From Opitutales bacterium (GTDB taxonomy: Bacteria; Verrucomicrobiota; Verrucomicrobiia; Opitutales; PNEW01): a stretch of 32,000 nucleotides of DNA. Shown one piece after another: positions 1 through 30,290 of this stretch (position 1 is the stretch's first letter; the number at the start of each line of letters is the position of its first letter). The DNA is taken from assembly GCA_965219535.1 (NCBI GenBank), contig CBDCNV010000001.1, positions 420,001 to 452,000 of the forward strand, read 5' to 3'. Made by a program: the position numbers and the translations under genes. The notes under the pieces are model-generated. The model ran no database searches. It was given only the letters and a program-made list of their open reading frames with translations, and was not told where the DNA came from.

Positions 1-1575
1 AACGGTAAAGGTGCCGCTCCCGGAAAATTCAACCTGCACGATGTCTTCGTCTTCGTCCATAAACGATACCCGAGTAATTTGATTCGGTCTCGCTTGAAGC
101 TGAATGGATTCACCCGTGAGCAGGATCTGGTCAAAGACATTACCATTCGGATGCTGAATATTTTCACCGGCGATATCACCTGACCCATTGAGGACAAGGG
201 GGACAGATGGAGCAGCCACGGTGATGACTGCAGTATCACTGTCGGTATTTCCTCCAGCATTGGAAATCCATACCCAGAAGCTTGTGCTCGCGGTGAGCGC
301 GCCGGTGTCTAAAGTGCTACCGGTCGCGCCGCCTACAGGAGCAGCGGTGTCACCGCTGTTACCGGTATACCATTGATAGCTCAAGTCTTCTCCACTGGCG
401 GTAACGGACAAACTCACCGAAGTGCCGGACTGCACTGCCTGGCTCGCGGGCTGAGTAGTGATGGATGGACCTTGTGCAGTAGGCGTATCTTCGAAACCCG
501 GCGCACCGATCGGGGTAAAACCGAAATCGTCGATGCTCGTCGAGCTGATATTAAGATTTGCACGTATATTATCAGTATAGGTTATTTTGGCAATGCCGCC
601 CACCGCACCCAATTCACTGGCTATTAATATAACCTGAAAAGGAAGGGTATTGGGGCTGAGGAATGCCGGCAGATCTTCGATCGTAACGAGCAAATTATCT
701 TCCGTGTCAAATACCTCAATCGTACCGTCATCTTCGCCAACCGCTTGATCAAAGATGGCTGCGGCATAGAATTGAACCCGTGCTGCCGGCGTTTCGAAAG
801 TGATCGTTCCGGTTTCACCTTCAAAAACTCTCCAGTAGTCGCAACATGAGCGGCTGAAACCTGAATGCAATGCTGTAAGGCCATTAGTAAACGTTGCGGT
901 AAAAGGAGATGAGCCAACCGTAAAATTATCAATTCCTGTGGTGAATTCTTCAAATCGGGTATGCACGGTATTATTTCTTGGCACTTCTGAATGGGTAAAA
1001 CCAAGATCATCGATGACTAATTTTCCCGTGACATTAAATAATTTAACTTCAGTGATACCGTCAAAGTAGTAGTCGATATCAACAAAATTTGAAATGCCTT
1101 CAGGCACATTGACGAACCGTTGCACAGGAGGATTGCTATCGGGGCTGATACTGGTCGGTAAGCCAGTTATTGTATATTGCGGTAGTGGTATTAAGATTAA
1201 TTCAACATATCTCTTTTCTAAGCTAATTTCACCGACATTCCCAGGACCCCCGGCTTCAATTTTGCCCGCGCCCGTGTTCTCAGCCACGTAAAATTCGATT
1301 TCAGCAATTCCCTTTTCAGTGAAGATCTTCCCTTCTTCACCGGGACCCAGGGTTATAGCTTTGGTTCCCGAATGTAAGAGTGATGGATCATCTAAAGTTT
1401 CCACCTTAAAGCCAACTAACTTGATCCGGTTTGGCTCTACACCGATAAAAATTTCACCTTCCCCGCTGATGTCCTCAAAATCCGTGAATACTTCGAGGTC
1501 CTGCGGAAGAGCGCGAAGAAGAGTCGGAAATAAAAGTGAAATCAATAATACAGCTACGATATATCTAAAGTGCAT
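1..1575 (-). CDS. Secreted modular protein, paralog of 12437..14725 (signal peptide, two beta-sandwich-like head modules, Ig-like domain, start of the shared C-terminal module). The 3' end runs off the window.
   Basis: Absent from the ORF track because there is no stop in the window. Hand translation of the minus strand from ATG 1575..1573 gives MHFRYIVAVLLISLLFPTLLRALPQDLEVFTDFEDISGEGE... The same frame (codon starts at positions divisible by 3) was checked at 1014 (VIDDLGFTHSE) and 66..1 (SFMDEDEDIVQVEFSGSGTFTV). Motifs EFYVAE/QFYAAA, IDDLGFT/IDDFGFT, YQWYTGNSGD and LNGSGDIAGENIQHPNGNVFDQILLTG are collinear with 12437..14725. Confidence 0.85.
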   Translation of the reverse strand, partial: MHFRYIVAVLLISLLFPTLLRALPQDLEVFTDFEDISGEGEIFIGVEPNRIKLVGFKVETLDDPSLLHSGTKAITLGPGEEGKIFTEKGIAEIEFYVAENTGAGKIEAGGPGNVGEISLEKRYVELILIPLPQYTITGLPTSISPDSNPPVQRFVNVPEGISNFVDIDYYFDGITEVKLFNVTGKLVIDDLGFTHSEVPRNNTVHTRFEEFTTGIDNFTVGSSPFTATFTNGLTALHSGFSRSCCDYWRVFEGETGTITFETPAARVQFYAAAIFDQAVGEDDGTIEVFDTEDNLLVTIEDLPAFLSPNTLPFQVILIASELGAVGGIAKITYTDNIRANLNISSTSIDDFGFTPIGAPGFEDTPTAQGPSITTQPASQAVQSGTSVSLSVTASGEDLSYQWYTGNSGDTAAPVGGATGSTLDTGALTASTSFWVWISNAGGNTDSDTAVITVAAPSVPLVLNGSGDIAGENIQHPNGNVFDQILLTGESIQLQARPNQITRVSFMDEDEDIVQVEFSGSGTFTV

Positions 1576-2996: not shown

Positions 2997-5039
2997 ATGA
3001 AGATAAACATTTTTCGCAGCTTTCGGATAGCGATCACGTTATTAGTTATGGCTTTCATTACTGCGGTATGGGGCTGCGGCGGGAACAGAGAAACCCAATC
3101 AAAAGAAGGAGCGGACAAACCTGAACGGGCCGCGGTCAATTTAGAAGGATTCAGTTTTATTTATCAAGGTCCGCCAGTTGCACATTTCAGTGAAGCGCCA
3201 GTTCTAGCGCAGCGCGTTGCCACGGGTGAACTCCCTCCGGTCGAAGATCGCTTACCCGACGAGCCCTTGATAATACCGCCCATAGAACGCATTGGCCAAT
3301 ACGGGGGTACCTGGCGCCGCGGTTTTACGGGGCTTGATACTAACAACATGGACCGGATAATCCATGATCACGTCATTTACTTTGACTTCGACGGCTACAC
3401 CCTGATGCCACACATCGCGAAAGGATGGGACATCAGCGAAGACGGGAGAACATTCACTTTCTATCTGCGGAAGGGCATGAAGTGGTCCGATGGCGCTCCG
3501 TTCACAGCCGATGACTTCGTTTTCGCCTTTGAAGATGTGACATTGAATAAAGATTTAAATCCGGTAAAACCCAGCCACGCGATAGTGGATGGGCAGCTCT
3601 GCAAATGTGAAAAGATAGATGAGACGACGATTCGCTATACCTTTCATAAATCTAATTATGTGTTCATCGAGAAAGTTGCTGGTTTATTTATCGGCGGCCA
3701 GTTCACTCGCGGAGGGGGCGCACCTCTCTACGCACCCCGGCATTATTTAAAGCAGTTTCTCCCGAAGTATACTCCTTTGGAAGAACTAAAAAACAGGGCG
3801 AAGGCGGCGGGGGATGAAAGTTGGAAGACATACTTCCTACGCATAGCTTCACCCCACAAGAACCGCGGCTTGCCGGTTGTCGGTCCATGGAAGATGGTTA
3901 CTCCGCTGACGAGTGAAATCTACTCTTTGGAACGCAATCCCTACTACTACGCCATCGATCCCGAAGGGAATCAGCTTCCCTATATCGATAAGATTGAAAT
4001 GCTTCTGTTTGAAGACGTGGAGGTGTTCAATGCACGTGCCATTGCCGGTGAGGTGGATATGCAACATCGCCATATCCTGCTAGACAAAGTCCCTCTGATC
4101 AAGCGTGAGTCAGACAAGGGTGACCACCGCCTACTCTTATGGCCTAATCTGGGCGGTTCTGACGCCATCATCTATGTTAACCAGACCTGGGTGGGAGATC
4201 CCGAAATAGTAAAGTGGCTGAGAAGCCGAGATTTCCGAAAGGCCCTCTCGCTTGCTATTGATCGGGAGGAGATAAACGAATTAATTTTTCTGGGCATCGG
4301 GAAGCCAAGAGCTTTCCTCCCATTACCCAATAACCCGTATTATCCCGGTCCAGAATATGAGAGAAAGAATGCGGTTCGAGACCTGGAGCAATCCAATACG
4401 ATCCTCGACGCACTCGGTTTGGATAAGAGGGACAGTGAAGGCTACCGCTTGCGTACGGATAACAGGGGTCGTCTCAATATTAGAATCTCAGTGGCTGGTC
4501 AGACGTTTGTAAATTTTGATGATATAGCTGAACTCCTCGTGAATCACTGGAAAGATGTCGGCCTAAACATAAAATTAAATATTGAAGCGGAAACTTTATA
4601 TGGCGTACGTGCTACAAACAACGAACACCAACTTAGCATGGGGGTTGCTGGGGGTTCTGAAAACCCGTGGACTTACCCAGTTATGACCATACCCGTTAGT
4701 ACCGGTGCTTTTGCCCCGCGCGTTGGCTCATGGTATATATCCGAAGGTAAAAAGGGTAAAGCACCTTCCGGCGGTCTAAAACGTTTAGTGGAAATCTATG
4801 AGGAGGGTAATAGTTTACCCAAAAAAATGCGCACGGAACTGGGAAAAGAATTATGGAGAATTCATTCAGACAACCTGTATGTAATTGGAACGGTGGCAAT
4901 CTCCCGCCATGAACGGGGTTGTCGTGGTGAAAAAACAATTTTCGCAATGTTCCCGATGTCGCTCCCAATAGCGCAACATTGCAATCACCGGGTATTGCCC
5001 GCCCCGAACAATTCTTTTTTGAGGGAGAGTGATCCGTAG
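2997..5039 (+). CDS. ABC-transporter family-5 (peptide/oligosaccharide/nickel type) solute-binding protein with no adjacent permease genes. The 3' end appears frameshifted, so it may be a pseudogene or carry assembly errors.
   Basis: 680-aa ORF. Signal peptide with Cys (MAFITAVWGCGG, possible lipobox). Size and internal patterns (GYTLMPHIAKGWDISEDGRTFTFYLRKGMKWSDGAPFTADDFVF, ERNPYYY, RKALSLAIDREEI) are typical of family-5 SBPs. After about 4896 the family-like sequence continues in the other two frames; see the finding at 4890..5039. Confidence 0.8.
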   Translation: MKINIFRSFRIAITLLVMAFITAVWGCGGNRETQSKEGADKPERAAVNLEGFSFIYQGPPVAHFSEAPVLAQRVATGELPPVEDRLPDEPLIIPPIERIGQYGGTWRRGFTGLDTNNMDRIIHDHVIYFDFDGYTLMPHIAKGWDISEDGRTFTFYLRKGMKWSDGAPFTADDFVFAFEDVTLNKDLNPVKPSHAIVDGQLCKCEKIDETTIRYTFHKSNYVFIEKVAGLFIGGQFTRGGGAPLYAPRHYLKQFLPKYTPLEELKNRAKAAGDESWKTYFLRIASPHKNRGLPVVGPWKMVTPLTSEIYSLERNPYYYAIDPEGNQLPYIDKIEMLLFEDVEVFNARAIAGEVDMQHRHILLDKVPLIKRESDKGDHRLLLWPNLGGSDAIIYVNQTWVGDPEIVKWLRSRDFRKALSLAIDREEINELIFLGIGKPRAFLPLPNNPYYPGPEYERKNAVRDLEQSNTILDALGLDKRDSEGYRLRTDNRGRLNIRISVAGQTFVNFDDIAELLVNHWKDVGLNIKLNIEAETLYGVRATNNEHQLSMGVAGGSENPWTYPVMTIPVSTGAFAPRVGSWYISEGKKGKAPSGGLKRLVEIYEEGNSLPKKMRTELGKELWRIHSDNLYVIGTVAISRHERGCRGEKTIFAMFPMSLPIAQHCNHRVLPAPNNSFLRESDP

Positions 5040-12436: not shown

Positions 12437-14725
12437 ATGAAAGGAAATTATATTATGTGCTCGAAAAAAAATCTCTCCACCTTGTTGATATCACTGGTTT
12501 TCACCGTATGGTTATCCGCTCAGCCGCAATCGCTTGAAACCTTTTTCGATTTCGAAAATGAAACTGCCACAGGGACAGATTTTACTTTGGGCGTTGCCCC
12601 GTTTACCATCCGGGTTATTGGATTTACCCTCGAAACGGTGGATGATCCAGCCCTCGCTCATTCGGGGACCAAAGCTTTGGTCCTTGAAGCGGGTCAGGAA
12701 GGGAAAATTATTTTAGAAAGAGGCGCCAATTTACTCCAGTTTTATGCTGCTGAATCAACCGGTGGCGGCCGATTGGAGCTTAGAGATAGAAACCGATTTT
12801 TTTTAAGGGAAGGTGGGACGATCGAGGGATTGCCGACAAACATCAGTCCCGGCGCCAACCCCCCGCTTCAGAGTTTCATCGGTTTCTCAGGAGATATTAA
12901 TGATGCTGCAGACCTTAACTATACGAACGGTGTCCTGGAAATAAAAATAATCAACGTAAATGGACGGGCGGCCATCGACGATCTTGGTTTTTCTTATGTT
13001 GTGGGTCCCCCCAACAATACTGTTTATGAAGATTTTGCGAATATAGCTAACAGTCCTTATTTTAGAACACCGGGTAGTACCAGTGCCAATTCGAGATTAA
13101 TTTTCACCATCGGTGAGTCCCCTTACACCGCAACGTTTACCGGTGGCATTGCGGCTGTCTCAGGCGGAGGTTTCTTTAATCATACTATTCCTGATGGTGA
13201 AACACAGGGGGGAGGAGATTTTCCCCTCGTCCCCGGTGCATGGAGAGTTGAGGACTTATCTTTTGGAGGAAGTGGTTTAGGTGTTATTACTTTCGAAACC
13301 CCTGTCGCCAAAGTAGAATTTTATGCCGCTGTGTTCCTTGAGGAAGATGGAGAACTCCAGATTTTTGATGCTAATGATAATCTACTCACTTCAACCAAAG
13401 ATATACCCCTTAATATAAGTCACTTATTTGAAGCACCCTTTGATTATTTATCCTTTAATGCGGCGGAGTTGGGGGCGCCTGAAGGAATTGGGAAGATTCA
13501 TTATCTCAATTTGGATAAAGTATCTTTTCAAGGGAATGTGCTGCACAATGTTATTGATGATATTGGATTTACCCCGGTCGGTGCCCCCGGTAGTGGTTCC
13601 GAGGGACCGCCTCCCGTAGCCGGTCCCACCATTACCACCCAGCCCGTGAGCCAGGAAGTACAGTCCGGCACGGCTGTTGTTTTATCGGTAGCAGCGAGCG
13701 GTGACGATCTTAATTATCAGTGGTATACAGGTAATAGTGGTGACACTGCGAGTCCCGTTGCTGGGGCTACCGGCAGCACCTTAACGACCGGTGCCCTAAC
13801 GGTGAGTACCAACTTCTGGACGCAGGTAAGCAACGCAGGTGGAAGCGCTGACAGCGATACCGCCTCCATTACCGTAACCGCTCCACCGGTGCCTCTCGTT
13901 CTCGACGGCTCGGGCGATATCGCCGGTGAAAACATCCAGCATGCCAACGGTAATGTCTTCGATCAGATTTTACTCACCGGGGAGTTCGTCCAACTCCAGG
14001 CCAAGCCGGGACAGATCACCCGCGTCTCCTTCATGGACGAAAACGAGGATATTGTGCAGGTAGAATTTTCAGGTAATGGGACCTTTACCGTAACCCTGGA
14101 TCCGTCCACCTTCCTGCCCCCGGCCATACCCCCGCGCTACAACCAGCAGGTTGAGTACGTGACGGGCAAGCCCAGCGTGGTTATCGATGGAGCGGACGCC
14201 AATACCTTCTTCAGTATCTTCACCGTGGGGAGGATCAACGCGTTTAACCAGGCCCTCTTCCCCGAGGGACAGGTCTATGACGCACAAGCGGACGTGGCCC
14301 TCGTGGAAGTAACCAACTCCACGGGACTTGGAGGGGTGCAGTTATCGAACACCGTCTTCAGTGGAAGCACGGGCAAGGTCGGTGTCGATGCGCGCGGGGT
14401 ACCGATCGCGGTACGCTTAACCGTCGGCGACATTGATGCTGATGGCGACGCAGTCCCACACCTGTTATTCGGATCCGGATCCTTCACGGTACCGGCCGGC
14501 AATCCCGGCTTGCGAATTACGGGTGGTGACCTCTTGCAGACAAACGGTGCCGCAGTCGTGGTAGCGGTGAGTGGATCGACAACGACCGGGTTTGATACCC
14601 TGATCACGCAGAACAACTTCAAATCTGACGAAACGCCTCAGCCGACACTGAGTATCGATGCCACCTTCGCCAACGAAGATGGCGATGCGATCACGGTGAC
14701 GGTCGAAGAGATTACGATTGAGTGA
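12437..14725 (+). CDS. Secreted modular protein: signal peptide, two beta-sandwich-like head modules, Ig-like domain, and the shared ~275-aa C-terminal module ending in EITIE
   Basis: 762-aa ORF. An alternative ATG at 12455 is preceded by AAGGA. Hydrophobic N-terminus LSTLLISLVFTVWLSAQ. Ig-like segment ITTQPVSQEVQSGTAVVLSVAASGDDLNYQWYTGNSGD...ITV. The C-terminal 275 aa are highly similar to the C-termini of 21265..22752 and 26597..28519 and to the visible part of 1..1575. Confidence 0.9.
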   Translation: MKGNYIMCSKKNLSTLLISLVFTVWLSAQPQSLETFFDFENETATGTDFTLGVAPFTIRVIGFTLETVDDPALAHSGTKALVLEAGQEGKIILERGANLLQFYAAESTGGGRLELRDRNRFFLREGGTIEGLPTNISPGANPPLQSFIGFSGDINDAADLNYTNGVLEIKIINVNGRAAIDDLGFSYVVGPPNNTVYEDFANIANSPYFRTPGSTSANSRLIFTIGESPYTATFTGGIAAVSGGGFFNHTIPDGETQGGGDFPLVPGAWRVEDLSFGGSGLGVITFETPVAKVEFYAAVFLEEDGELQIFDANDNLLTSTKDIPLNISHLFEAPFDYLSFNAAELGAPEGIGKIHYLNLDKVSFQGNVLHNVIDDIGFTPVGAPGSGSEGPPPVAGPTITTQPVSQEVQSGTAVVLSVAASGDDLNYQWYTGNSGDTASPVAGATGSTLTTGALTVSTNFWTQVSNAGGSADSDTASITVTAPPVPLVLDGSGDIAGENIQHANGNVFDQILLTGEFVQLQAKPGQITRVSFMDENEDIVQVEFSGNGTFTVTLDPSTFLPPAIPPRYNQQVEYVTGKPSVVIDGADANTFFSIFTVGRINAFNQALFPEGQVYDAQADVALVEVTNSTGLGGVQLSNTVFSGSTGKVGVDARGVPIAVRLTVGDIDADGDAVPHLLFGSGSFTVPAGNPGLRITGGDLLQTNGAAVVVAVSGSTTTGFDTLITQNNFKSDETPQPTLSIDATFANEDGDAITVTVEEITIE

Positions 14726-15548: not shown

Positions 15549-16823
15549 GTGCCTGAAGAGTCTGCTATAGAGTGCGAATCCGCCGTGTATAAGGATACGC
15601 TTGTGCTCATTGTTTTCTCATTCATCCCGTCAAAGGGTGAGATGGTGAAATGGTATTGGACTCGTATTGCCGGTGTACCCTACCTTTTAAGAAACATCAT
15701 CAATATCCAACGTGGTGGGGGTAATAAAACATATTTGTATCATAGTGAGCAATTCGCACCTCTTAAAGAATTATGCCGTCTTGTTAATGACGATCCAAGA
15801 GTGCTAAACAAAACAGAGTGTATATCAGTGCCCGAGGATTTAGAACGCGTGCTTCGGAGCATGAAAAACATCCTTATCCTGAATGGCTCAGTCCTTCATC
15901 ACAGATTAGAAATCCAGAACGCTCTTTCATTATTCACTCAATATACCGTTACAGATAGAGATGAAAAAAAAGAAAGAGTTAGTATCGATAACTTACTCTC
16001 TCAATTCGATAAGCATGAAGATTTCAATGTTCAATGGTCTGAAAAGATTACTGCGATAAGCGTTGGTGATAAACCGGTATCCCCTTCAAACGAAAGTATA
16101 CGGATTCAATATTTGTCCGGCAGTAAGATTACGAAAATAACAACCGAAAATGATTTTCATAAAGAGCATATGCGTATCATGAAGTCTGGTGGCCTGGAAA
16201 CCGACAGCATGATAAACAGGTTATTTTCTCGTAGCGTATCACGATTCTTAACACGACTGGCCATTCATACGCCGGTAAGCCCTAATCAGGTCACTTTGTT
16301 AAGTTTTTTCCTTGGATTAATATCGACCTGGTTTTTTTTCCAAGGCGTTTATGGGATGAGCCTGGTAGGAGCGGTCATCCTGGTGATTTCTACTTGGATA
16401 GATGGTGTCGATGGTGAACTGGCTAGATTGACTTTCAGGGAATCTAAAATGGGAGCTAAATTGGATATCACCTTGGATTGTTTTGTAAATTACATCGTTT
16501 TCTTTTCGATTGGCGTGGGATTAACCCGTTCATCCGGGGACAACCTTTATGCTATTCTTGGTTTAGTCGCGGTTATTGGCAGTATTATTTCTTTTGTCTT
16601 TATGAGTTCTTTAATCTCAGAGAGCAAATCACCTGAACGACATGACAGTATTTCAATGGATAAGCGTCGTATGATTCAGGATAAAATAGCCAATCGGGAT
16701 TTTATTTTCATCCTGTTTTTACTCGCGCTTATTGATAGAACAGAAATATTCATCTGGCTCGCGGCAATCGGAGCCAATGTCTTTGCCCTTTATTCACTTT
16801 ACGCCAGGTGCATTGCCAAGTAG
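15549..16823 (+). CDS. CDP-alcohol phosphatidyltransferase family membrane protein with a ~230-aa soluble N-terminal extension
   Basis: DGVDGELARLTFRESKMGAKLDITLD matches D-x2-D-G-x2-A-R-x8-G-x3-D-x3-D exactly. Several hydrophobic helices follow residue ~235. The N-terminal part (LVLIVFSFIPSKGE..IAGVPYLLRNI) loosely resembles a nucleotidyltransferase fold but lacks the G-x-G-x-R loop. GTG start as in the track. Confidence 0.75.
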   Translation: MPEESAIECESAVYKDTLVLIVFSFIPSKGEMVKWYWTRIAGVPYLLRNIINIQRGGGNKTYLYHSEQFAPLKELCRLVNDDPRVLNKTECISVPEDLERVLRSMKNILILNGSVLHHRLEIQNALSLFTQYTVTDRDEKKERVSIDNLLSQFDKHEDFNVQWSEKITAISVGDKPVSPSNESIRIQYLSGSKITKITTENDFHKEHMRIMKSGGLETDSMINRLFSRSVSRFLTRLAIHTPVSPNQVTLLSFFLGLISTWFFFQGVYGMSLVGAVILVISTWIDGVDGELARLTFRESKMGAKLDITLDCFVNYIVFFSIGVGLTRSSGDNLYAILGLVAVIGSIISFVFMSSLISESKSPERHDSISMDKRRMIQDKIANRDFIFILFLLALIDRTEIFIWLAAIGANVFALYSLYARCIAK

Positions 16824-16900
16824 AGGATTTTTATCATCAAGAAATTGGAACGAAGGCCGAATTAGAGCGGCGGTAGGTGTTTATTAAATCGATGAAATAT

Positions 16901-17923
16901 TCAATTACTACCTTGCTTTTCTCTCGGTGCGCAAGCGCGCGGATTTTCAATCTCACGCTTTAATTGATCCATTCCCTCTTCGACAGAAATCTCAGGTTCA
17001 AAGTTAAGTTCATGACGAATTTTATCCATACACAGAGTACTTTGTGTCGTTAGCATATTTATGGCCGTATGTGTCAAGAAGGGACGGTCACCTGGTTTTA
17101 ACCGTTTGTGTGTACATTCAAATATGGAAGCCATGATGCGTGCTACGGGAAGTGGAATGGATTTTTTAACCGGTTTAGAACCGACTATTTTAGCCAGATG
17201 GTTGAAGAATTCATTAAATGAAATAGGCTCGTTATCCCCTACAATGTATCCTTGCCCAATCGCATTCGGGTGTTCCGAAGCAAGTAGTATCGCGTCGATC
17301 AAGTTATCGATGTAACAGGGATGGCAGGTGCCTTTACCGCCGGCGATGAGAAACATTCTGTTTTGGCGGATTAAGCGGAGAGGTTCTTCAACCCAACCGC
17401 TACCGAGGCCATAAACGACGGATGGTCGTAATACCACGACTGGTAATCCGTGATCGCTATGATATTTAAAGACGAGGACTTCACCTTCAATTTTCGATTG
17501 AGAATAAAAGTCTTTTCCGGGATTGTATGGTGTTTTGTCGTCAAAGTAAGCCGGTGAGGGAACACCGAATACTGCGATGGAACTGAGGTGAATAAATCGT
17601 ATTATCTTTCTTTCAACAGCTGCTTCTAATAGCCATTCTGTGCCTTGTACATTCGTTGAATGAAAAGTTTCTTCTGTGCCCCAATCCAAAACATGACCCG
17701 CACAATGAAAAACCCGTTCAACGCCATGCACGGCTTTATCAATTGAATCGCGGTTACCTAAATCCCCGATCACTATTTCTGCCGACTCTTTGGAAATGGG
17801 TGGCAGTTTATGTTCACTCTCAGGTCTGCAGAACAGTTTTACCTTACGCCCTTCTCTCAACAAGCGTTCGCTCAGATGACGGCCGATGAATCCGGTAGCA
17901 CCGGTTATTAGATCAGCATGCAT
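16901..17923 (-). CDS. NAD(P)-dependent epimerase/dehydratase (extended SDR)
   Basis: 340 aa. Rossmann motif GATGFIGRHL and catalytic YSQSK (YxxxK). Its start lies 2 nt after the stop of the upstream SDR gene, suggesting an operon. Confidence 0.8.
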   Translation of the reverse strand: MHADLITGATGFIGRHLSERLLREGRKVKLFCRPESEHKLPPISKESAEIVIGDLGNRDSIDKAVHGVERVFHCAGHVLDWGTEETFHSTNVQGTEWLLEAAVERKIIRFIHLSSIAVFGVPSPAYFDDKTPYNPGKDFYSQSKIEGEVLVFKYHSDHGLPVVVLRPSVVYGLGSGWVEEPLRLIRQNRMFLIAGGKGTCHPCYIDNLIDAILLASEHPNAIGQGYIVGDNEPISFNEFFNHLAKIVGSKPVKKSIPLPVARIMASIFECTHKRLKPGDRPFLTHTAINMLTTQSTLCMDKIRHELNFEPEISVEEGMDQLKREIENPRACAPREKQGSN

Positions 17924-17925
17924 AG

Positions 17926-18915
17926 TTAAATATACCCGTTGCTTCTAAACCATTGGATAGATCTTTCCATTGCTCCGTCGCAGGATATTGGATTATATCC
18001 CAGTTCATCTTTGGCTTTTGCGCTTTCATAGTATAAATATTTTCCAATCAGTCCCTGCATACCCACAGTTAATTTTGGCGCTCTGTGAGTAAAGTGATCA
18101 GCTATGCCCTCTTGACAATGCGCGACAAGGCTAAGTAGAGATTTTGGGATACGCACTTTCGGTCGTCCTTTTCCTGCAAGCTTCGCGATCTTCGACATAA
18201 ACTCTTTGTTAGAAAGATTATCACCAGCAAGAAGATACTGTTCACCCGCTCGACCTTTTTCTAGGGCTAACCATAATCCCTGAACGAGGTCATGGACATC
18301 GACAAAACAGGCGCCGCCATCTACCCAAACGGGCCACCATCCTTTACAGATATCAATGATCGGTTCACCGATTGGAGTTGGTCCGTAATCCATTTCACCA
18401 ATAGCGGAAGCGGGATTTACGATAACTACGGGTAAATCTTTTTCTTTTGCCCATCGTTTTATTTCATCTTCCCCAGCTTTCTTTGTCTCCGCATATAAAA
18501 ATCGCTTACCAGACATATTGAATTCCGATTTTTCATTACGCGTTACTGGCTGTTCAGATACTCCAAGTGTAATGCAACTGCTTACGTGGACCATTTTTTC
18601 TATACCCGTGGCCAGACTGGCAGCGGCTATATTTATTGGACCGAGGACATTCAGCTTGTGAAAGACATTGGGATCTCTCGACCAGTAACGGTTAAAACCG
18701 GCGAGATGAATGAGAACATCGCAGCTATTGAGAAAGGGATATAAACTCTCTGTATCAAGTACGTCACCCCAGAAAACTTGATGGGGCAAGTTTTCTAGAA
18801 GCGTATCCGACGTGCCTTGAAGAAGAAAGGCGATGACCTCGTGACCCAAAGAGGTGACGTAGCGGGTCAAATGATTTCCTATAAAACCATTTGCGCCTGT
18901 TATCCCTACTTTCAT
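17926..18915 (-). CDS. NAD(P)-dependent epimerase/dehydratase (extended SDR)
   Basis: 329 aa. GANGFIGNHL and YAETK motifs. Confidence 0.8.
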   Translation of the reverse strand: MKVGITGANGFIGNHLTRYVTSLGHEVIAFLLQGTSDTLLENLPHQVFWGDVLDTESLYPFLNSCDVLIHLAGFNRYWSRDPNVFHKLNVLGPINIAAASLATGIEKMVHVSSCITLGVSEQPVTRNEKSEFNMSGKRFLYAETKKAGEDEIKRWAKEKDLPVVIVNPASAIGEMDYGPTPIGEPIIDICKGWWPVWVDGGACFVDVHDLVQGLWLALEKGRAGEQYLLAGDNLSNKEFMSKIAKLAGKGRPKVRIPKSLLSLVAHCQEGIADHFTHRAPKLTVGMQGLIGKYLYYESAKAKDELGYNPISCDGAMERSIQWFRSNGYI

Positions 18916-19227: not shown

Positions 19228-21225
19228 ATGCAGAAAATTAAATCCCTTTTCGGATTATTGGTTTTTTCAGCCTGTGCCTGCACGGAATTGCTGGCGGTAG
19301 ATGTCATCTTTCTGGATATAGACCTGGAAATAGCAATTCGAGAGGTGCTGGAGAAACCTGACGGGCCAATAACAGACACGGACATGGCCCTGATAGAATC
19401 GCTTACTATCAATGAAAGAAGTATACTTAATCTAACTGGGCTGGAATATGCAGTTAACTTGGGCTACTTGGATCTTTCTAATAACCTCGTCATAGATACC
19501 AGCCCATTATCGGGGTTGGCTCAGCTTGAAACGCTATATTTGTTTGATAATCTAATCAGCGATTTCAGTCCATTGGCTGGGTTAACTCAACTGACATCCC
19601 TCGATCTTGAGTTTAACTTTATCAGTGACCTCAGTCCGTTGACAGGTTTAATCGAATTGACATTCCTGAATCTGGACAACAACGAGATCAGTAATCTTAA
19701 TCCCTTGGCTGGTTTAACGCAGCTGACTTTTCTTGATCTAGACAACAACCAGATAAGTGAACTCGGTCCATTAGCGGGTTTAATCCAATTGGACTTTCTG
19801 AGTCTAGACAACAACGAGATCAGTAATCTTAATCCCCTCACTGGTTTAACGCAGCTGACCGTCCTGTTTATTGACAATAGCCAGATCAACGATATCAGCC
19901 CGCTGTCTGGGTTGACTCAGATGGAGTCCCTGACCCTGTTGAATAATCAAATCAGTGATATCAGTCCCCTGGCAGGTTTAACCCAATTGGACTTCCTGTA
20001 TCTAGACAATAATCAGATTAGTAATCTTACCTCCCTCGCTGGCTTAACGAATTTGAGGATCCTGTTTATTGACAGTAGCCAGATCAGTGATATCAGTCCG
20101 TTGTCTGGCTTAACTAAGCTGGAGTCTCTGACCCTGTTTGATAATCAAATCAGCGATATCAGTCCCCTGGCAGGTTTAACTCAACTCACATTTCTGAGCC
20201 TAGGCGACAACCTGATCAGTGACCTCGGACCCTTATCGGGCTTAACCCAAATGTCATTACTGGGTCTGGACAACAACCAGATCAGTAATCTAAACCCCCT
20301 GGCTAGCTTAACGCAACTGACACTCCTGTATATTGACGGTAGCCAGATCAGCGATATCAGCCCGTTGTCTGGGTTGACTCAATTGGATACCCTGACCCTG
20401 GTTGATAATCAAATCAGCGATATCAGTCCCCTGGCAAGTTTAACCCAACTGGAAACTCTCAATCTTTCCACGAACCAAATAAACGATCTCAACCCCTTAG
20501 CCGGTCTAACGCAACTTACAGGATTATATCTTACCTCGAACGCAATCAGTGATACCAGCCCACTGGCCGGTTTATCTCAGTTGAGTGAATTATTACTTAC
20601 CGATAACAATATAAGTGCAATCGACTCCCTGGCCGGATTAAGCAGTCTCACCTACCTTGATCTCGAGGAAAACCTATTAGACATAAGCGAGAATTCCGAA
20701 GCACTGGATATAATCGAAAATCTTATTTCTAATTATTCCACAGTCGTTTTTTTCCAAACGCAAAATACGGATGTGCTATTTTTGCAGGTAAGCAAAGGGA
20801 CCTTCACAGATAAAATTCAGATTACATGGCAAAGTGTTGAAGGTGCGACTTACGATCTTTTCCGTAATACCACGCCTGACACCAAAGGAGCTATTTTATT
20901 ACAAGCCAATCTCAACGTAACTGTTTACGATGATATTACACCTCAATCAGGAGTCACTTACTATTATTGGTTAGCGATTAAGATCAACGGGGAAACGATC
21001 AGTATATCCAATACGGATAGTGGCTATCGAGCACAAGCGCTTGTCGGCATTGGCGCATGGGGTGATGATGATAAAGGTCAGTCTACAATACCCGAAGAGC
21101 TGACTGAAGTGATCCAGGTTGATGCCGGATCCGCGCATAGTATAGCATTACAGTCTAACGGCACGGTCGAAGTCTTTGGAGATAACAGCCTTGATCAATT
21201 GGACATTCCTGGAAATCTCACATGA
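19228..21225 (+). CDS. Leucine-rich-repeat protein: signal peptide or possible lipobox, about 20 x 22-aa LRRs, an Fn3/Ig-like domain, and the first RCC1-like blade. It is the N-terminal part of a gene interrupted by an in-frame TGA.
   Basis: 665-aa ORF. N-terminus MQKIKSLFGLLVFSACAC. Repeats fit LxLxxNxIsDisPLaGLTQLxx. Then QITWQSVEGATYDLFRN...YYYWLAIK, then AWGDDDKGQSTIPEELTEVIQVDAGSAHSIALQSNGTVEVFGDNSLDQLDIPGNLT followed by the stop. Confidence 0.85.
   Translation: MQKIKSLFGLLVFSACACTELLAVDVIFLDIDLEIAIREVLEKPDGPITDTDMALIESLTINERSILNLTGLEYAVNLGYLDLSNNLVIDTSPLSGLAQLETLYLFDNLISDFSPLAGLTQLTSLDLEFNFISDLSPLTGLIELTFLNLDNNEISNLNPLAGLTQLTFLDLDNNQISELGPLAGLIQLDFLSLDNNEISNLNPLTGLTQLTVLFIDNSQINDISPLSGLTQMESLTLLNNQISDISPLAGLTQLDFLYLDNNQISNLTSLAGLTNLRILFIDSSQISDISPLSGLTKLESLTLFDNQISDISPLAGLTQLTFLSLGDNLISDLGPLSGLTQMSLLGLDNNQISNLNPLASLTQLTLLYIDGSQISDISPLSGLTQLDTLTLVDNQISDISPLASLTQLETLNLSTNQINDLNPLAGLTQLTGLYLTSNAISDTSPLAGLSQLSELLLTDNNISAIDSLAGLSSLTYLDLEENLLDISENSEALDIIENLISNYSTVVFFQTQNTDVLFLQVSKGTFTDKIQITWQSVEGATYDLFRNTTPDTKGAILLQANLNVTVYDDITPQSGVTYYYWLAIKINGETISISNTDSGYRAQALVGIGAWGDDDKGQSTIPEELTEVIQVDAGSAHSIALQSNGTVEVFGDNSLDQLDIPGNLT
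19402..20721 (+). repeat. Tandem 66-bp coding repeats (about 20 LRR units) with higher-order 132-bp and ~200-bp periodicity
   Basis: The LRR units are in frame and contiguous. For example, 19675..19728 and 19807..19860 (offset 132 bp) share perfectly identical blocks of 30 nt and 20 nt. The blocks starting near 19863, 20064 and 20330 are also near-identical. Confidence 0.9.
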
Positions 21226-21264
21226 GTAATCGCCGTCGCCGCCGGTTATTTTCATAATTTAGCT

Positions 21265-22752
21265 TTGAAGGAAGACGGTAGGGTGGTCGCCTGGGGTTGG
21301 AATACTAACGGTCAGACGAATGTGCCCACGAATTTGGAAGATGTCAAACAGGTATCCGGTGGTGGTGATTTCAGTCTTGCTTTAATTGGTGATGGGACGG
21401 TGAGAGCTTGGGGTAATAATTTCGCACATCAGACCGAAGTGCCGAAAGGGCTTGCCGATGTAAAACAGGTGTCAGCGGGGGGATCGCACGCGCTCGCCTT
21501 GAAAGAAGATGGCACGGTTGTAGCATGGGGAAATAATGCAGATGGTCAGGCAACGGTGCCGTTCGGACTACGCGATGTAGTAGCAGTTGCTGCTGGTAAA
21601 TCACACAGTTTAGCATTAAAAGCTGACAGCACGATCGTTTCCTGGGGCAGCAATAACCGCGGACAACTTGATTTCCCTGGAGTATTTAACAGTCCCTCCA
21701 AGCAAGGTATTTCTGCGCAGTTTAATGCCTCTAGCGTTGTTTCCATTGCCGCAGGATTTAATCACAACCTGGCCCTGGATGCTGAAGGAAACGTCGTTGC
21801 CTGGGGAGATAATACATTCAGCCAGGCGACGGTTCCTGAAGCACTTACAGGAGTAGAAAATATTGCTGCCGGGGGTCGGCATAATATTGCCTTGTTTGAG
21901 TCTGCTGCTGTTGCTGAGAGTATTATACTCGATGGCTCGGGGATAATCGCAGGACAGGATATCCAGCATTCCAACGGAAATATCTTTGATCAGGTCCTGC
22001 TCACCGGAGAGTTTATTCAGCTTCAAGCCAAGCCGGAACAGATTACAAGGGTATCCTTCATGGATGAAGATGAGGACATTGTGCAGGTAGAGTTCTCAGG
22101 AAGCGGAAACTTTACCGTAACCCTGGATCCAGTTAGCTATTTACCTTCTGCTTTGCCAGCGCGTTATAACCAACAGGTCGAATATGTTAGAGGTAAGCCG
22201 AGCATCCTAATCGAAGGCGCCGACGCTACTACTTTCTTCAGTATTTTCACCGTTGGTAGGATCAACGCGGTGAACCAGGCATTGTTTCCGGTCGGTCAAG
22301 TTTATGATGCCGAAGCCGACGTGACCCGGGTAGAAGTGATCAACTCAGTGGGAATCGGGGGAATGCAAATGTCGAATACCGTATTTTCGGGTAGCACGGG
22401 GAAGATTGGTGTTGATGCCCGAGGGGTACCTGTTGCTGTGCGTATAACGATTGGAGACATCAGTGCCAGTGGCGGCGCTGTTCCTTATTTAATGTTTGGT
22501 TCAGGATCTTTCACCTTGCCCGCTGGTAATTCGGGATTGCGAATAACGGGGGGCGACTTGGTTCAGGCAAACGGTGCCTCGATCGTTGTTGCAGAGAGTG
22601 GATCGACGACACCAGGATTTGAGACCCTTATCATGCAGAATAATGTTAAGTCGGATAGCACCCCTCAACCAACTCAGAGCAACGGGGCATCATTTATTAA
22701 TGAGGATAATGCCGCGATCAACGTGACAGTGGATGAGATAACGATCGAATAA
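21265..22752 (+). CDS. RCC1-repeat protein with the shared C-terminal module. It is the C-terminal part of the interrupted LRR-RCC1 gene and has no signal peptide of its own.
   Basis: 495-aa ORF in the same frame as 19228..21225, with a TTG start placed inside an RCC1 blade. About 6 RCC1-like blades (VVAWGxNxxGQxxVP...V.AGxxHSLAL). The C-terminal ~275 aa match the shared module and end in DEITIE. Confidence 0.8.
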   Translation: MKEDGRVVAWGWNTNGQTNVPTNLEDVKQVSGGGDFSLALIGDGTVRAWGNNFAHQTEVPKGLADVKQVSAGGSHALALKEDGTVVAWGNNADGQATVPFGLRDVVAVAAGKSHSLALKADSTIVSWGSNNRGQLDFPGVFNSPSKQGISAQFNASSVVSIAAGFNHNLALDAEGNVVAWGDNTFSQATVPEALTGVENIAAGGRHNIALFESAAVAESIILDGSGIIAGQDIQHSNGNIFDQVLLTGEFIQLQAKPEQITRVSFMDEDEDIVQVEFSGSGNFTVTLDPVSYLPSALPARYNQQVEYVRGKPSILIEGADATTFFSIFTVGRINAVNQALFPVGQVYDAEADVTRVEVINSVGIGGMQMSNTVFSGSTGKIGVDARGVPVAVRITIGDISASGGAVPYLMFGSGSFTLPAGNSGLRITGGDLVQANGASIVVAESGSTTPGFETLIMQNNVKSDSTPQPTQSNGASFINEDNAAINVTVDEITIE

Positions 22753-24142: not shown

Positions 24143-25672
24143 TTATTTCGCATTCTCGCTTTTGCGTAGTAGGGCTGCTCCGGTAGTATAATTGTGATGA
24201 GCCGCAGAAAGGCGATGCCAAGTGAGAAAGCTTTTAATGTCTTCGCGATTCCATTGAGGAGAGTGTTGATTATTAAAAGCAGGATGAAACCAGATCAGCT
24301 TTTCGAATGAGGAGAGTGTCAGCGGTGTTCCGCCCCATTCCGGATAAGACATGTCATAACCTGGTTCACAAACATCAAAGCTGATACCGAGATAACCTCC
24401 GGGCTTAAGGACTCGTACTGTTTCATCAACGGCCGTATTTTTATCCTCCTGATGCTCGATCACTGATAAGCTAGTTACAACATCTATAGTCGCGGTATCA
24501 ATGGGAAGTTGACAGGAATCAGTGATTACCCAGTTAACATCCACTTCCAGTTTATTACGCACAGCCTCCCACTGATTTACCCAATTGGTTTGGGTCTCTA
24601 CAATGGTGACGTGAGCTCCTTTCAAAGCAATCATCCAGGGCCAAGGCGATTGTTCACTGCCTATGTCGAGTAGATGTACATCTTTCCAGTTTAATCGATT
24701 TAAACCTTGAAACCATAGCCGTGGATACTCCCAGTTTTTTGCCCAGTTACAAAAGGTGCGCAAGCCGAGCGGTTCAGCTAGTTCATTAAGGGTATCTATG
24801 AACGCGCAATAATCAGGGCTAAAAGTCTCTTCTAAATTAGCTAAATAGCGTGGGCTGTTGACAGTGCGCTCTCGCTTCCTGGCAATTGTAATTTCATGAG
24901 AAGTTTGCCAACAATCATCGTTTTCCAGGACTTCAAAATCACAGGTATTAAGAATTGTTGCAATTGATGAGCGGGTAAAAATAAACGCGTGTTCTTCGGG
25001 ATCGAATACATTGGTGTTAAGTGATTCGACATCTGTGTTTTCATTAATCAAAGGTAATTGCAGATAGAGAATACCCTTGGGATGAAGTTGACGGTGAGCG
25101 GCCTTAAGAAACGCAACCGGATCGCGCGAGTGTTCCAGAACATCGCAAGCCACAATCAGTTCAGCTTTTGGTAGATTATCGACGTCGGGGAATACCCCGG
25201 ATCTTACATCGAGATCAGCTATTTTATTTACCTCAGATGCGGTATGTGGATCAGGTTCAATGCCGATCGTTTTCCAACCCAACCCCTTCAACGCAATTAA
25301 AAGGGATCCCTCAGCACAGCCGACCTCAATCACACGTCCGGGGGTAGAGATGTGTTTTTTAATGCTCGTTAGCCATTTGTTCACTCTACCATCTTCCACA
25401 AAAATTGCCTGGCGCTCTTCTAAAACGGGGTGTTCCTTATGCATCTGCCGTTTCTGCCAATAGCCACGATAGGAGTAAAATGACGATACTGCTTCGGATT
25501 TAATTCGTCGACGGGCATAGTGGGTAGCACAGCGTTCACATTCAAGATAGTCGGGAGAAAATCTGCTTACGGAATTACTTTTCCAACCGCACCAACACCT
25601 GTCGGAAACTTCAAAACGGGCATCGGTATCAAAATCAACGTGCCCGTTTTCAGTATTTATTTCGTTATTCAT
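24143..25672 (-). CDS. Double class-I SAM-dependent methyltransferase with an N-terminal Cys4 zinc-ribbon
   Basis: CWCGW...CERCATHY (4 Cys). First MTase domain: VIEVGCAEGSLLIALKGLGWKTIGIEPD, ACDVLEH, LHPKGILYLQLP. Second MTase domain: LLDIGSEQSPW..VTIVE, IDVVTSLSVIEH, LKPGGYLGISFD. The track ORF starts with TTG at 25726. The ATG at 25672 (MNNEINTEN) overlaps the upstream stop by only 8 nt and is preferred. Confidence 0.8.
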   Translation of the reverse strand: MNNEINTENGHVDFDTDARFEVSDRCWCGWKSNSVSRFSPDYLECERCATHYARRRIKSEAVSSFYSYRGYWQKRQMHKEHPVLEERQAIFVEDGRVNKWLTSIKKHISTPGRVIEVGCAEGSLLIALKGLGWKTIGIEPDPHTASEVNKIADLDVRSGVFPDVDNLPKAELIVACDVLEHSRDPVAFLKAAHRQLHPKGILYLQLPLINENTDVESLNTNVFDPEEHAFIFTRSSIATILNTCDFEVLENDDCWQTSHEITIARKRERTVNSPRYLANLEETFSPDYCAFIDTLNELAEPLGLRTFCNWAKNWEYPRLWFQGLNRLNWKDVHLLDIGSEQSPWPWMIALKGAHVTIVETQTNWVNQWEAVRNKLEVDVNWVITDSCQLPIDTATIDVVTSLSVIEHQEDKNTAVDETVRVLKPGGYLGISFDVCEPGYDMSYPEWGGTPLTLSSFEKLIWFHPAFNNQHSPQWNREDIKSFLTWHRLSAAHHNYTTGAALLRKSENAK

Positions 25673-26396: not shown

Positions 26397-26596
26397 CGAA
26401 TTTTAAGAAACTAAAGAGTGTAGCCGCTGTCTCCAACGAAGCAAACTTAGAATTATTACGCCCTGACTTTAAAACGTGTTAATTTCTGCTTTTGAAATTA
26501 AATGTAGATTATTAAAGGAGTCTTTTTTTGTTAGTTTAAAGATGGCTTGCCACATTTTATCACTTTGATATAAGTAATCTTTTGAATATACAGGGT

Positions 26597-28519
26597 ATGA
26601 AATTTATTAAAAATAAAATAATACGCGTTTTCATTTTAATCTCTGCTTTGTTTTTTATCTCGGAACTACCGGGATTCGCACAACCAAAAGCGCCCCCCAC
26701 TGCGCCCCCGGTTATAATAAATGATCAATCTATAGCTGTTAATCCGAAGGGTGAAATTCAAGCGGCGGCAACTCAATATTCGATTGGTGACCCAACGGCT
26801 GAAGAGCAGCTTGTTTTAGAATTTATAAATCGCGCGCGCGCTGATGCCAACGCGGAGGCACAGAGGTTAGTTACGACGACAGATGAAGATGTATTAAGCG
26901 CGATAGATTTTTTCGGAGTCGATCTCGGTGTCGTGGTCAACCAGTTTGCGACTCTCACGCAAACGCTTCCGCCGCTCTCCATGAATGCGCAACTCACAAC
27001 CGCCGCGAGATTGCACAGCCAGGACATGTTCAATAATGTATTTCAAGGACATTTTAGTTCAGATGATCCGGTATCACCGAATGAGCCGGGAGATAGCAGT
27101 GGGGACCGCGCGAGACATCAAGGATACACTTTCATGAATTTAGGGGAAAATGTTTTTTCATTTGCTCGATCAGTTTTTGAATCGCATGCGGCATTTGAAA
27201 TTGATTGGGGTTTTACTCCGACTGGCATTCAAGATCCACCCGGACATCGAACCAACATTCACGGGTCTGCATTTCGGGAGGCTGGGATTGGTATCGTTCT
27301 TGGAACAAATAGTTCAGGGGATGACTCGGTGGGGCCTATACTAATCACCCATGATTTCGGTGTTCAGTTAATCGGAGCTACCCCTTTTATTACAGGTGTT
27401 ACCTACGACGATCAAAATGGAAACGCCTTTTATGATTTAGGTGAAGGATTGGGTGGCATTAATGTTGACGTCAATGGCTCTGATTTTTTTGCCGTGACTG
27501 TGACAACGGGTGGCTACTCTGTTCCCGTGCCGGGAAACGGCAATTATTCGGTGACATTTTCCAGTCCATCAATAACCGATCAGACAACCCAGGTTGTCAT
27601 ATCCAATTCTGAAAATAAAAAGCTCGATTATACGCCACAAGCAGCAGGCAGTAATGGTGGAAATGGAAGTGAGCCTGAACCTAATGCGCTGATTATTGGA
27701 GGTACGGGGGATATCGCGGGAGAGGACATCATGCACCCGAATGGGAATGTCTTCGACCAGGTCCTGCTCACCGGACAAAGCATTCAGCTTCAAGCCAAGA
27801 CGGGGCAGATTACGCGCGTCTCTTTCATGGACGAAGACGAGGATATCGTTCAGGTAGAGTTCTCTGGAAACGGAACTTTTACTGTGACCCTGGATCCAGC
27901 CACCTTCCTGCCACCAGCCATTCCCCCGCGCTACAACCAGGCAGTAGAGTATGTAACGGGGAAACCGAGCGTGGTTATCGATGGTGCGGATTCCAATACT
28001 TTCTTCAGTATCTTTACCGTGGGGATGATCAATGCGGTGAACCAGGCTTTGTTCCCCGCGGGTCAGGTCTATGACGCTGAAGCGGACGTGACCCTGGTAG
28101 AAGTGACCAATTCCACGGGGATGGGCGGGATGCAGCTTTCAAACACTGTATTTAGTGGTAGTTCAGGTAAGGTTGGCTTGGATGCGCGAGGAGTGCCGAT
28201 TGCAGTACGCCTGACTGTAGGCGATATTGATGCATCGGGCAGTGCGATACCACACCTGCTTTTTGGGTCGGGGTCCTTCACGGTGCCTGCCGGCAACCCC
28301 GGTTTGCGTATCACTGGAGGAGACTTGGATCAAACGAATAATGCATCGATCGTGATCGCGGAAAGCGGATCGACGACTCCCGGATTTGAGACTTTGATCT
28401 TTCAGAACAACTTCAAGTCTGACAATACACCTCAGCCAACGCAGAACAACGCGGCCACTTTTGTCAATGAGGATGGAGTGGAAATCACCAAACCCGTCGA
28501 CGAGATTACGATTGAGTAA
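26597..28519 (+). CDS. Secreted modular protein: signal peptide, CAP/SCP/PR-1-like domain, a small beta-sandwich (carboxypeptidase-regulatory-like) domain, and the shared C-terminal module
   Basis: The track ORF starts with TTG at 26582, but the ATG at 26597 (MKFIKNKIIRVFILISALFFISELPGFAQ) is preferred. CAP-like: EEQLVLEFINRARADANAEA, PLSMNAQLTTAARLHSQDM, GHFS, GENV, PPGHRTNI. Then GVTYDDQNGNAFYDLGEGLGGINVDVNG..GGYSVPVPGNGNYSVTF. The C-terminal ~275 aa match the shared module and end in DEITIE. Confidence 0.85.
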   Translation: MKFIKNKIIRVFILISALFFISELPGFAQPKAPPTAPPVIINDQSIAVNPKGEIQAAATQYSIGDPTAEEQLVLEFINRARADANAEAQRLVTTTDEDVLSAIDFFGVDLGVVVNQFATLTQTLPPLSMNAQLTTAARLHSQDMFNNVFQGHFSSDDPVSPNEPGDSSGDRARHQGYTFMNLGENVFSFARSVFESHAAFEIDWGFTPTGIQDPPGHRTNIHGSAFREAGIGIVLGTNSSGDDSVGPILITHDFGVQLIGATPFITGVTYDDQNGNAFYDLGEGLGGINVDVNGSDFFAVTVTTGGYSVPVPGNGNYSVTFSSPSITDQTTQVVISNSENKKLDYTPQAAGSNGGNGSEPEPNALIIGGTGDIAGEDIMHPNGNVFDQVLLTGQSIQLQAKTGQITRVSFMDEDEDIVQVEFSGNGTFTVTLDPATFLPPAIPPRYNQAVEYVTGKPSVVIDGADSNTFFSIFTVGMINAVNQALFPAGQVYDAEADVTLVEVTNSTGMGGMQLSNTVFSGSSGKVGLDARGVPIAVRLTVGDIDASGSAIPHLLFGSGSFTVPAGNPGLRITGGDLDQTNNASIVIAESGSTTPGFETLIFQNNFKSDNTPQPTQNNAATFVNEDGVEITKPVDEITIE

Positions 28520-28587
28520 TAGAAGATCCGGGTTAACCTGATCTCAACAATCTTATTAATTAAATCAGTACTTTCACCGGGAAAGTC

Positions 28588-29766: not shown

Positions 29767-30290
29767 ATAAAGAAGTAAAGCAGGGCAAAATTGATTTATC
29801 AGCAATTCACTCTGTAATGCAAAAAGAACTGGACTGGAAAACCAAGTCTCAACTTCTTGACCGCATGTTTTCTGAAAGCGATGATCGTGAGTTAACAATG
29901 ATAAAACATCAACAATGGGAAGAAATAGAAAGTTTTATTTCTCAGGCCGTTGACGGTAATCATCCGAAAGTGAAAGGGCCCGCCCTCTATCGACGATTTC
30001 GACGAAAACAGGGGAAAGTAAATCGAATGATAATACTGGTTCTATCCAGATTTTTAGAGTTGATCAAAAGTATCGATAAGCGGCTGCATAAAGTTGAGAT
30101 TATACCTTTAAATAATTATCGCCATCATGACGAATCAGCTATGCAATCCGAAAACGAATTGCGAGCTACTGATGAATTAAAATCTGATTTAAAAGATATG
30201 CGCCATAAATTAAATTTATTAGAAGAAGAAATTAATAAAATTGAAAAATCGCGTCCATCATCAGAGACGTCGCCTGTTAACGAGGTTTAA
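29763..30290 (+). CDS. Hypothetical protein, charged and coiled-coil-like
   Basis: 175-aa ORF translationally coupled to the GT2 gene by an ATGA overlap. The C-terminal LKSDLKDMRHKLNLLEEEINKIEK is coiled-coil-like. No family recognised. Confidence 0.55.
   Translation: MNKEVKQGKIDLSAIHSVMQKELDWKTKSQLLDRMFSESDDRELTMIKHQQWEEIESFISQAVDGNHPKVKGPALYRRFRRKQGKVNRMIILVLSRFLELIKSIDKRLHKVEIIPLNNYRHHDESAMQSENELRATDELKSDLKDMRHKLNLLEEEINKIEKSRPSSETSPVNEV

Follow-up and report, generated by a model that had tools for sequence, protein, structure and literature searches.

An unassigned domain joined to swappable heads in exported proteins of Opitutales, a candidate surface attachment module

Four genes within a 32,000-nucleotide stretch of an Opitutales genome (Verrucomicrobiota; contig CBDCNV010000001.1 of assembly GCA_965219535.1, positions 420,001 to 452,000 of the forward strand; hereafter, the window) encode proteins that share one 276-aa domain, denoted here the module, whereas the parts in front of it, the heads, are of several types. 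The module is a real and widespread domain that has not been assigned to any family, occurs at different positions in proteins, is linked to signal peptides and is far more conserved than the heads to which it is joined. Swappable heads on a constant module are an arrangement of a well-known kind, but the domain that fills this role here is unrelated to every family tested. We tentatively propose that the module acts outside the cell as a free-standing attachment domain, which would retain proteins on the surface of the producing cell via one invariant component of the envelope; that the module binds, and what it binds, we infer.

Module copies in the window

The copies are designated after genes A to D, which carry them:

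Copy A, 13895..14722, plus strand, 276 aa, followed by the stop codon 14723-14725 (from translation and alignment)
Copy B, 21922..22749, plus strand, 276 aa, stop codon 22750-22752, 77% amino acid identity to copy A
Copy C, 27689..28516, plus strand, 276 aa, stop codon 28517-28519, 83% amino acid identity to copy A
Copy D, 1..198, minus strand, first 66 aa visible before the window edge, 88% amino acid identity to copy A

These intervals are exactly those of the original prediction, which was made from the sequence alone, and translating each of them gives the same 276-aa module. The predicted start is right as well: relatives in which the module comes straight after the signal peptide begin at the same [LI]V.xGSG. 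All three complete copies close with EITIE and a stop codon, as seen in the translations of A, B and C. This ending, described as invariant, is so within the window but not across the family, where close relatives end in E[ILVM]T[IV]E and distant ones very differently, for example, in DVTxQIVVNP. The module is acidic, with an isoelectric point of ~4.05, and contains neither Cys nor Trp.

Among the window copies, the proportion of synonymous differences over the whole module is saturated (pS = 0.66-0.90, Nei-Gojobori) while that of nonsynonymous differences is low (pN = 0.06-0.15), and the ratio of nonsynonymous to synonymous substitution rates (dN/dS) for A versus C is ~0.07. It follows that the copies diverged long ago and evolve under purifying selection, and are not recent duplicates or conversion tracts, in line with what had been proposed from a run of 20 codons in copies A and C (14045-14104 vs 27839-27898); our recount of this run gave the same result, 12 differences, every one of them synonymous.

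The module matches no known family or fold

The module had not been recognized as any described domain, and profile and structure searches of Pfam, NCBIfam, PDB sequences and Foldseek databases lead to the same conclusion. At the threshold used for the family libraries, E<=1, there were zero matches on the module in Pfam-A (2025 copy) and NCBIfam 20.0, either for the module alone or for the full window proteins, and no family of these libraries covers the module in 60 diverse and 30 further relatives. Alignment-profile searches of PDB sequences with the module reached only E 0.54 at best.

The AlphaFold2 model of the module, built from a 44-sequence alignment, is of high confidence (pLDDT 94.2, pTM 0.92) and consists of ~20 beta-strands, among them two 14-residue strands at the start, with no helices. 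Foldseek found no neighbor of this model in the PDB (best E 2.2, TMq <= 0.10) or in BFVD (best E 0.25). This empty result is not a failure of the pipeline because the positive control, a gene A head model of far lower confidence (pLDDT 71), returned 196 PDB matches at E<=1e-3. Vault, SPFH and flavivirus E proteins recurred as weak Foldseek matches (E 2-9, TM <= 0.1) and were dismissed as local resemblance of long hairpins. Alignment of module segments against each other with hhalign detected no internal repeats, and a triple repeat like that of the CWB2 domain was rejected on these grounds. The confidence of the model together with the absence of internal repeats suggests that the module folds autonomously, as would be expected of a free-standing attachment domain.

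The original prediction held that the module differs from PEP-CTERM signals, from the C-terminal domains (CTDs) of the type IX secretion system (T9SS) and from autotransporter or outer-membrane barrels, and tests with hidden Markov models (HMMs), of length and of the terminus agree. A PEP-CTERM/exosortase signal was rejected given the acidic C-termini, ...V(E/D)EITIE, without a hydrophobic helix and with no NCBIfam match. An autotransporter or outer-membrane beta-barrel was rejected given no Pfam match, no barrel found by Foldseek in the PDB, the terminal Glu, and the occurrence of the module also at the N-terminus and in tandem. The folds of lectins and carbohydrate-binding modules (CBMs), including jelly-roll, ConA-like and beta-trefoil folds among others, were not found: Foldseek searches of PDB and BFVD and profile searches of the PDB were empty for the module. 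The single FG-GAP/VCBS-like loop that had been noted, DxDxDG-like GDIDADGDA in copy A, appears in the alignment as described, degenerate in copy B (GDISASGGA), and is degenerate in copy C too (GDIDASGSA); no FG-GAP or VCBS HMM matches the module at E<=1, and the model is without propeller-like repeats.

A literature search yielded no account of the domain and no paper citing accessions of related proteins. There are zero UniRef-sourced entries among the listed module homologs, and the source names of the homologs are uninformative ('hypothetical protein', 'delta-60 repeat protein', 'S-layer protein', 'serine hydrolase'; head-based or automatic labels). The non-UniRef origin and these names may explain the lack of a curated family.

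Family size, distribution and domain architectures

Searched with the module profile, 1.84 billion cluster representatives yielded a family of 786 clusters at 50% identity with E<=1e-3, 590 of them with E<=1e-30. A scan of species-representative genomes yielded 122 confirmed copies. The module is found in Verrucomicrobiota, namely, Opitutales and their relatives. The 69 best loci all come from two Opitutales metagenome-assembled genomes, OY829953.1 (4.49 Mb) and CBDANS01, and the copy at one of these (L001) is 98% identical to copy A, which places the window in a closely related organism. The two genomes contain at least 53 and at least 44 full-length distinct copies, which are lower bounds obtained from the fetched loci alone; most of these copies belong to gene A paralogs of ~740 aa. 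Distant members of the family are 35-45% identical. Some of them start with '...LEALEQRQLLA' (LExLExRxLL), a motif that Planctomycetes extracellular proteins typically bear at the N-terminus and that matches Pfam Planc_extracel below the threshold.

The position of the module in the best 150 representatives is distributed as follows:

C-terminal, 81
N-terminal, straight after the signal peptide, 27
Internal, 18
Alone or in tandem, 11
Fragments, 13

Thus, the module is not the dedicated C-terminal domain that it was first taken to be. Some proteins are two-ended, with a He_PIG/Ig region between two modules (P0157, P0159), and the proteins of one cluster, represented in contigs of several genomes, consist of a signal peptide and the module only (P0098, 302 aa). 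In proteins with an N-terminal module, the tail is kept inside the protein as 'EELTID' (P0121, P0123), and the AlphaFold2 model places a strand at residues 269-272. For these two reasons, the tail region is, on the predicted structure, part of the fold and not a free terminal sorting tag.

Pfam and NCBIfam scans of the relatives, in which the heads are highly diverse, reinforce the notion that heads are swapped on a constant module. The partner domains include immunoglobulin-like (Ig) domains of several types, CARDB, PPC, fn3, Big_7, subtilase, trypsin, polysaccharide lyase and CBM96, and further, ExeM/NucH nuclease, peptidyl-prolyl isomerase (PPIase), FG-GAP, HAF, delta-60 repeats, internalin-type leucine-rich repeats (LRR), RCC1 and CAP.

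A second unassigned domain, C-terminal, ~130-150 aa long, without a Pfam match and ending in G[TS]F.[EQ][LI], follows N-terminal modules in nine proteins (P0059, P0060, P0079, P0090, P0102, P0108, P0112, P0150 and P0173). In other relatives (P0077, P0081), the C-terminus is a long poly-Asp tail.

Constant module and variable heads

The contrast between module and head was quantified for 53 full-length paralogs of ~740 aa:

Head, mean pairwise amino acid identity 52%, median pN 0.353, median pS 0.75
Ig_7 domain, mean pairwise amino acid identity 76%, median pN 0.121, median pS 0.615
Module, mean pairwise amino acid identity 90%, median pN 0.059, median pS 0.55

Conservation of the module among the paralogs is even, at 0.87-0.94 per 30-aa block. 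The gene A-type head is the variable part of this family of more than 50 members, with the lowest conservation around aa 241-270. Because synonymous divergence is high, recent gene conversion is rejected as the cause of module similarity, and the substitution pattern points to selection as the source of its uniformity. A signal-peptide-like h-region is present in 53/53 of the full-length paralogs by a crude hydrophobicity test, which extends to the paralogs the association with signal peptides originally seen in the window.

Proposed attachment to the cell surface and alternative functions

Under the proposed attachment function, module-bearing proteins would be exported by Sec via their ordinary N-terminal signal peptides. 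After export, the module would act as a common non-covalent attachment module with a single invariant binding partner, which most likely belongs to the cell's own envelope and could be a surface glycan or protein. Dozens of heads, including enzymes, LRR, RCC1, CAP, Ig and jelly-roll binders, would thereby be displayed at the cell surface. General-purpose attachment is suggested by the position independence of the module, the dozens of heads that are functional by themselves, the conservation of the module in excess of that of the heads, and the link to signal peptides. The module is unlikely to be the catalytic or substrate-binding part of these proteins because the heads bring activities of their own (subtilase, trypsin, polysaccharide lyase, CBM96, ExeM/NucH).

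The family displays the signature of surface anchors, that is, many exported paralogs, variable domains on either side, and an anchor more conserved than the cargo; this likeness is in the way the module would work and does not imply membership in any anchor family. The best functional analogy for the architecture appears to be the Cwp family of Clostridioides difficile, ~29 paralogs in which CWB2, an anchoring block of ~270-300 aa, attaches non-covalently to a surface polysaccharide, with variable domains (proteases, adhesins, CAP-like and others) on either side. There is, however, no HMM match between the two; CWB2 consists of three alpha/beta repeats whereas the module is a single all-beta unit in the model, without internal repeats, and the hosts of CWB2 are Firmicutes whereas those of the module are diderm Verrucomicrobiota. 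S-layer homology (SLH) domains, non-covalent surface anchors at either terminus of S-layer proteins and exoenzymes, are placed much like the module, but they are short helical repeats to which the module has no relationship in sequence or fold. A third parallel comes from the Sap S-layer proteins of Campylobacter fetus, a multigene family with a conserved anchor region that binds lipopolysaccharide (LPS) and a highly variable remainder, a split reminiscent of the 90% identity of the module versus 52% for the heads. The Sap family, in contrast, has fewer than 10 copies, bears its conserved part at the N-terminus and switches expression by DNA inversion at one promoter, whereas module genes number more than 50, are dispersed and encode individual signal peptides. 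All these analogs, the CWB2 and SLH anchor blocks and the LPS-binding region of Sap, can be likened to the module in function, but are not homologous to it. Searches for known non-covalent anchors (SLH, CWB2, LysM and others in Pfam) gave no match in 5 window queries and ~90 relatives.

Three observations weigh against attachment to the producing cell. The standalone, tandem and two-ended forms are explained no less well by a lectin or a lattice unit than by a self-anchor. The model has no known fold neighbor, so structural analogy provides no argument. Finally, the clustered flanking open reading frames (ORFs) of the 69 loci include no recurrent secretion, sorting or partner genes; the recurrent neighbors are members of families that are abundant anyway (PhyH-like, symporter-like, IS3 transposase) and antisense artefacts.

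As a first alternative, the module might serve as a lectin or adhesin directed at something external, for example, a glycan of a host or alga or the surface of a particle, and would then tether secreted enzymes and eukaryote-like heads to this outside target. Lectins and CBMs typically adopt standalone, tandem and two-ended architectures; the heads include a polysaccharide lyase, a glycanase, proteases and nucleases; and the genomic neighborhoods are rich in sulfatases and sugar-acid enzymes. The polar and aromatic residues conserved family-wide (H16, D23, Q24, R43, D48, D52, E57, Y82, Q84, Y88, N118, Y128, N152 and Q215) are also compatible with ligand binding of this kind. However, some carriers already possess a bona fide CBM (CBM96), the presence of more than 50 proteins per genome with a module at ~90% identity is unusual for a substrate-targeting CBM, the module lacks Trp, and it shows no similarity in fold or sequence to any lectin or CBM. 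We consider an external lectin rather unlikely, but the first alternative to be kept in mind.

The evenness of module conservation fits extensive protein-protein interfaces, which is relevant to the possibility that the module is a self-assembly unit, such that the modules of the paralogs co-oligomerize into an S-layer-like lattice or fiber base that presents the variable heads. The two-ended and tandem forms could cross-link such a lattice, the conserved standalone module could be its base subunit, and one distant member carries the IMG label 'S-layer protein', which is automatic and weak evidence. The pN/pS of ~0.1 is, however, ordinary for a well-folded domain, and self-assembly seems to us unlikely.

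The original prediction envisaged an anchoring, export or oligomerization module. Of these, anchoring and oligomerization remain candidates, whereas export is disfavored by the N-terminal, internal and tandem forms and by the retention of the tail inside proteins. The case for export would be a C-terminal export or sorting domain that is read by an outer-membrane translocon and perhaps removed or covalently attached, as in T9SS. The T9SS CTDs of Bacteroidota cargo (Por_Secre_tail, CHU_C) are like the module in being constant, C-terminal, beta-rich domains on unrelated Sec-exported heads, and they are often preceded by Ig-like spacers; likewise, gene A encodes an Ig_7 domain ('CHU_C associated') just upstream of the module, the same placement as in T9SS cargo. 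Moreover, the module is C-terminal in 81/150 representatives and in essentially all fetched gene A-like loci of the two Opitutales genomes, and the E[ILV]TIE tail is conserved among close relatives. Nevertheless, T9SS CTDs are strictly C-terminal and ~70-100 aa long, whereas the module, at 276 aa, is about three times that size, follows the signal peptide in 27/150 representatives, is internal in 18/150, and is duplicated within single proteins, and P0121 and P0123 keep the tail internally. The HMMs of T9SS families (Por_Secre_tail, CHU_C and NCBIfam types A and B) gave no match at E<=1 on the module or the full proteins and matched 0/60 representatives, nor was there an HMM match to any sorting domain. 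No machinery genes recur beside the module, and SprA, PorV and PorU are not recurrent in the flanks of the 69 loci, the regions covered by this comparison. The phylum that hosts the module is not known to use T9SS. Taken as a whole, C-terminal export is improbable.

An enzymatic role, for example, as a new carbohydrate-active family with the heads as accessory binding modules, could give the invariant His, Arg, Tyr, Gln, Asp and Glu a place in an active site, and the catalytic domains of multi-modular carbohydrate-active enzymes do occur at either end. We regard this role as highly improbable, given that many of the heads are themselves entire enzymes with unrelated activities (S8, trypsin, nuclease, PPIase, lyase), that LRR and RCC1 heads are pure binding scaffolds, and that more than 50 near-identical catalytic domains per genome are implausible. 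Concerted evolution, that is, gene conversion among paralogs in place of functional constraint, is largely refuted as the source of module similarity: the median pS of the module (0.55) is somewhat below that of the head (0.75), 19/1378 paralog pairs combine a saturated head with a module pS <0.3, and recombination could be favored by insertion sequence (IS) elements and clustered copies, but module pS is still high (0.55 in the paralogs, 0.66-0.90 in the window) at a pN/pS of ~0.1, and the domain is conserved over 786 clusters at 50% identity, including members with the Planctomycete-type leader. Old gene conversion, now and then, is possible in view of the 19 pairs.

Heads and gene integrity in the window

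The heads of the four window genes are the following:

Gene A head, 12437..13894, plus strand, signal peptide, two beta-sandwich domains at aa ~32-380 and Ig_7 at aa 401-484, in the ORF 12437..14725
Gene B head, 19228..21921, plus strand, signal peptide, LRR array and RCC1 blades, with an in-frame TGA at 21223-21225
Gene C head, 26582..27688, plus strand, signal peptide, CAP/SCP domain and CarboxypepD_reg-like sandwich
Gene D head, 199..1575, minus strand, signal peptide, two beta-sandwiches and an Ig domain, gene start at 1575 (from translation)

The heads had been described as unrelated to each other, which is correct for A, B and C; those of A and D, however, are homologous, being 53% identical paralogs in the alignment, so that there are three types rather than four. 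The gene A head matches Ig_7 (PF19081, E 3e-9) and otherwise has no Pfam match; Foldseek comparison of its AlphaFold2 model with the PDB retrieves Ig, MAM, reelin and CBM-type sandwiches. The A/D head type comprises two jelly-roll, MAM or CBM-like sandwiches and an I-set Ig domain. The gene B head matches LRR_4 (E 2e-91) and RCC1_2 (E 1.6e-47) in Pfam. The gene C head matches CAP (PF00188, E 8.6e-6) and CarbopepD_reg_2, the latter with E 8e-5, under its cutoff, and the true start of the gene is likely the ATG at 26597.

Every intact gene had been said to start with a signal peptide, and this is the case for A, C and D; in B, the signal peptide sits on the first ORF of an interrupted gene. Gene B (19228-22752, plus strand) consists of two ORFs in the same frame that are parted by the TGA at 21223-21225, '...PGNLT*VIAVAAGYFHNLAL'. 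The other RCC1 blades have Gly or Asp at this position, and a single GGA-to-TGA change would explain the stop. A genome-wide code change was rejected, given that TGA terminates other genes in the window. A one-off assembly error was likewise rejected because two further assemblies (L074, L075) have this TGA as well and match gene B exactly over 141 bases across the junction. The codon thus appears to be genuine, and either ends translation prematurely in this population or is read through.

In the CBDANS genome, another RCC1-module paralog is split into two overlapping ORFs (L076/L077, 3082-4041 and 4001-5572). Gene A-like paralogs are seemingly truncated or disrupted at several loci (L002, L022, L051-L054, L059, L064, L067). 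The split and disrupted paralogs suggest ongoing pseudogenization in this large family.

Genomic context

The module genes of the window sit amid housekeeping genes and genes for envelope glycans and lipids (15549-18915, 24143-31375); the latter encode a CDP-alcohol phosphatidyltransferase, two NAD-dependent epimerases, a double-domain methyltransferase and a family 2 glycosyltransferase (GT2). The ORF 30329-31375 may encode a further glycosyltransferase. The assembly represented by L074 shares the order of genes around gene B (18-26 kb). Elsewhere in the window, the SBP_bac_5 ORF at 2997-5039 (plus strand) has an odd, low-complexity-looking C-terminal region of ~60 aa (4866-5039) that overlaps a minus-strand ORF, and could be frameshifted near its 3' end.

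At 24 of the loci in the two Opitutales genomes, at least two module-matching ORFs lie within ~6 kb of each other, some of them perhaps pieces of one disrupted gene. IS3-type transposase ORFs, with helix-turn-helix and rve domains, are found near 10-12 module loci (for example, 1309-1623 and 2149-2613 at L004). Mobile elements may drive the expansion of the module family.

Implications for possible surface display in Verrucomicrobiota

How Verrucomicrobiota and their relatives retain proteins at their surface is poorly understood, and no classical anchor was detected on the module proteins. The module is a concrete candidate for this role. Its predicted structure is confident, and more than 50 exported proteins carry it per genome, eukaryote-like LRR, RCC1 and CAP proteins among them. 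Its definition as a domain family would provide annotation for thousands of 'hypothetical' metagenomic proteins, and the family is a case study of rapidly diverging heads on a constant base. A broader and somewhat doubtful possibility is that this undescribed fold could be the universal base of a surface-display system of Verrucomicrobiota and their relatives, a variable protein coat anchored to an envelope receptor and possibly involved in interactions with hosts or particles. If the surface-display reading is true, some Opitutales devote ~2-3% of the genome to this system, in the form of more than 50 proteins with fast-diverging heads.

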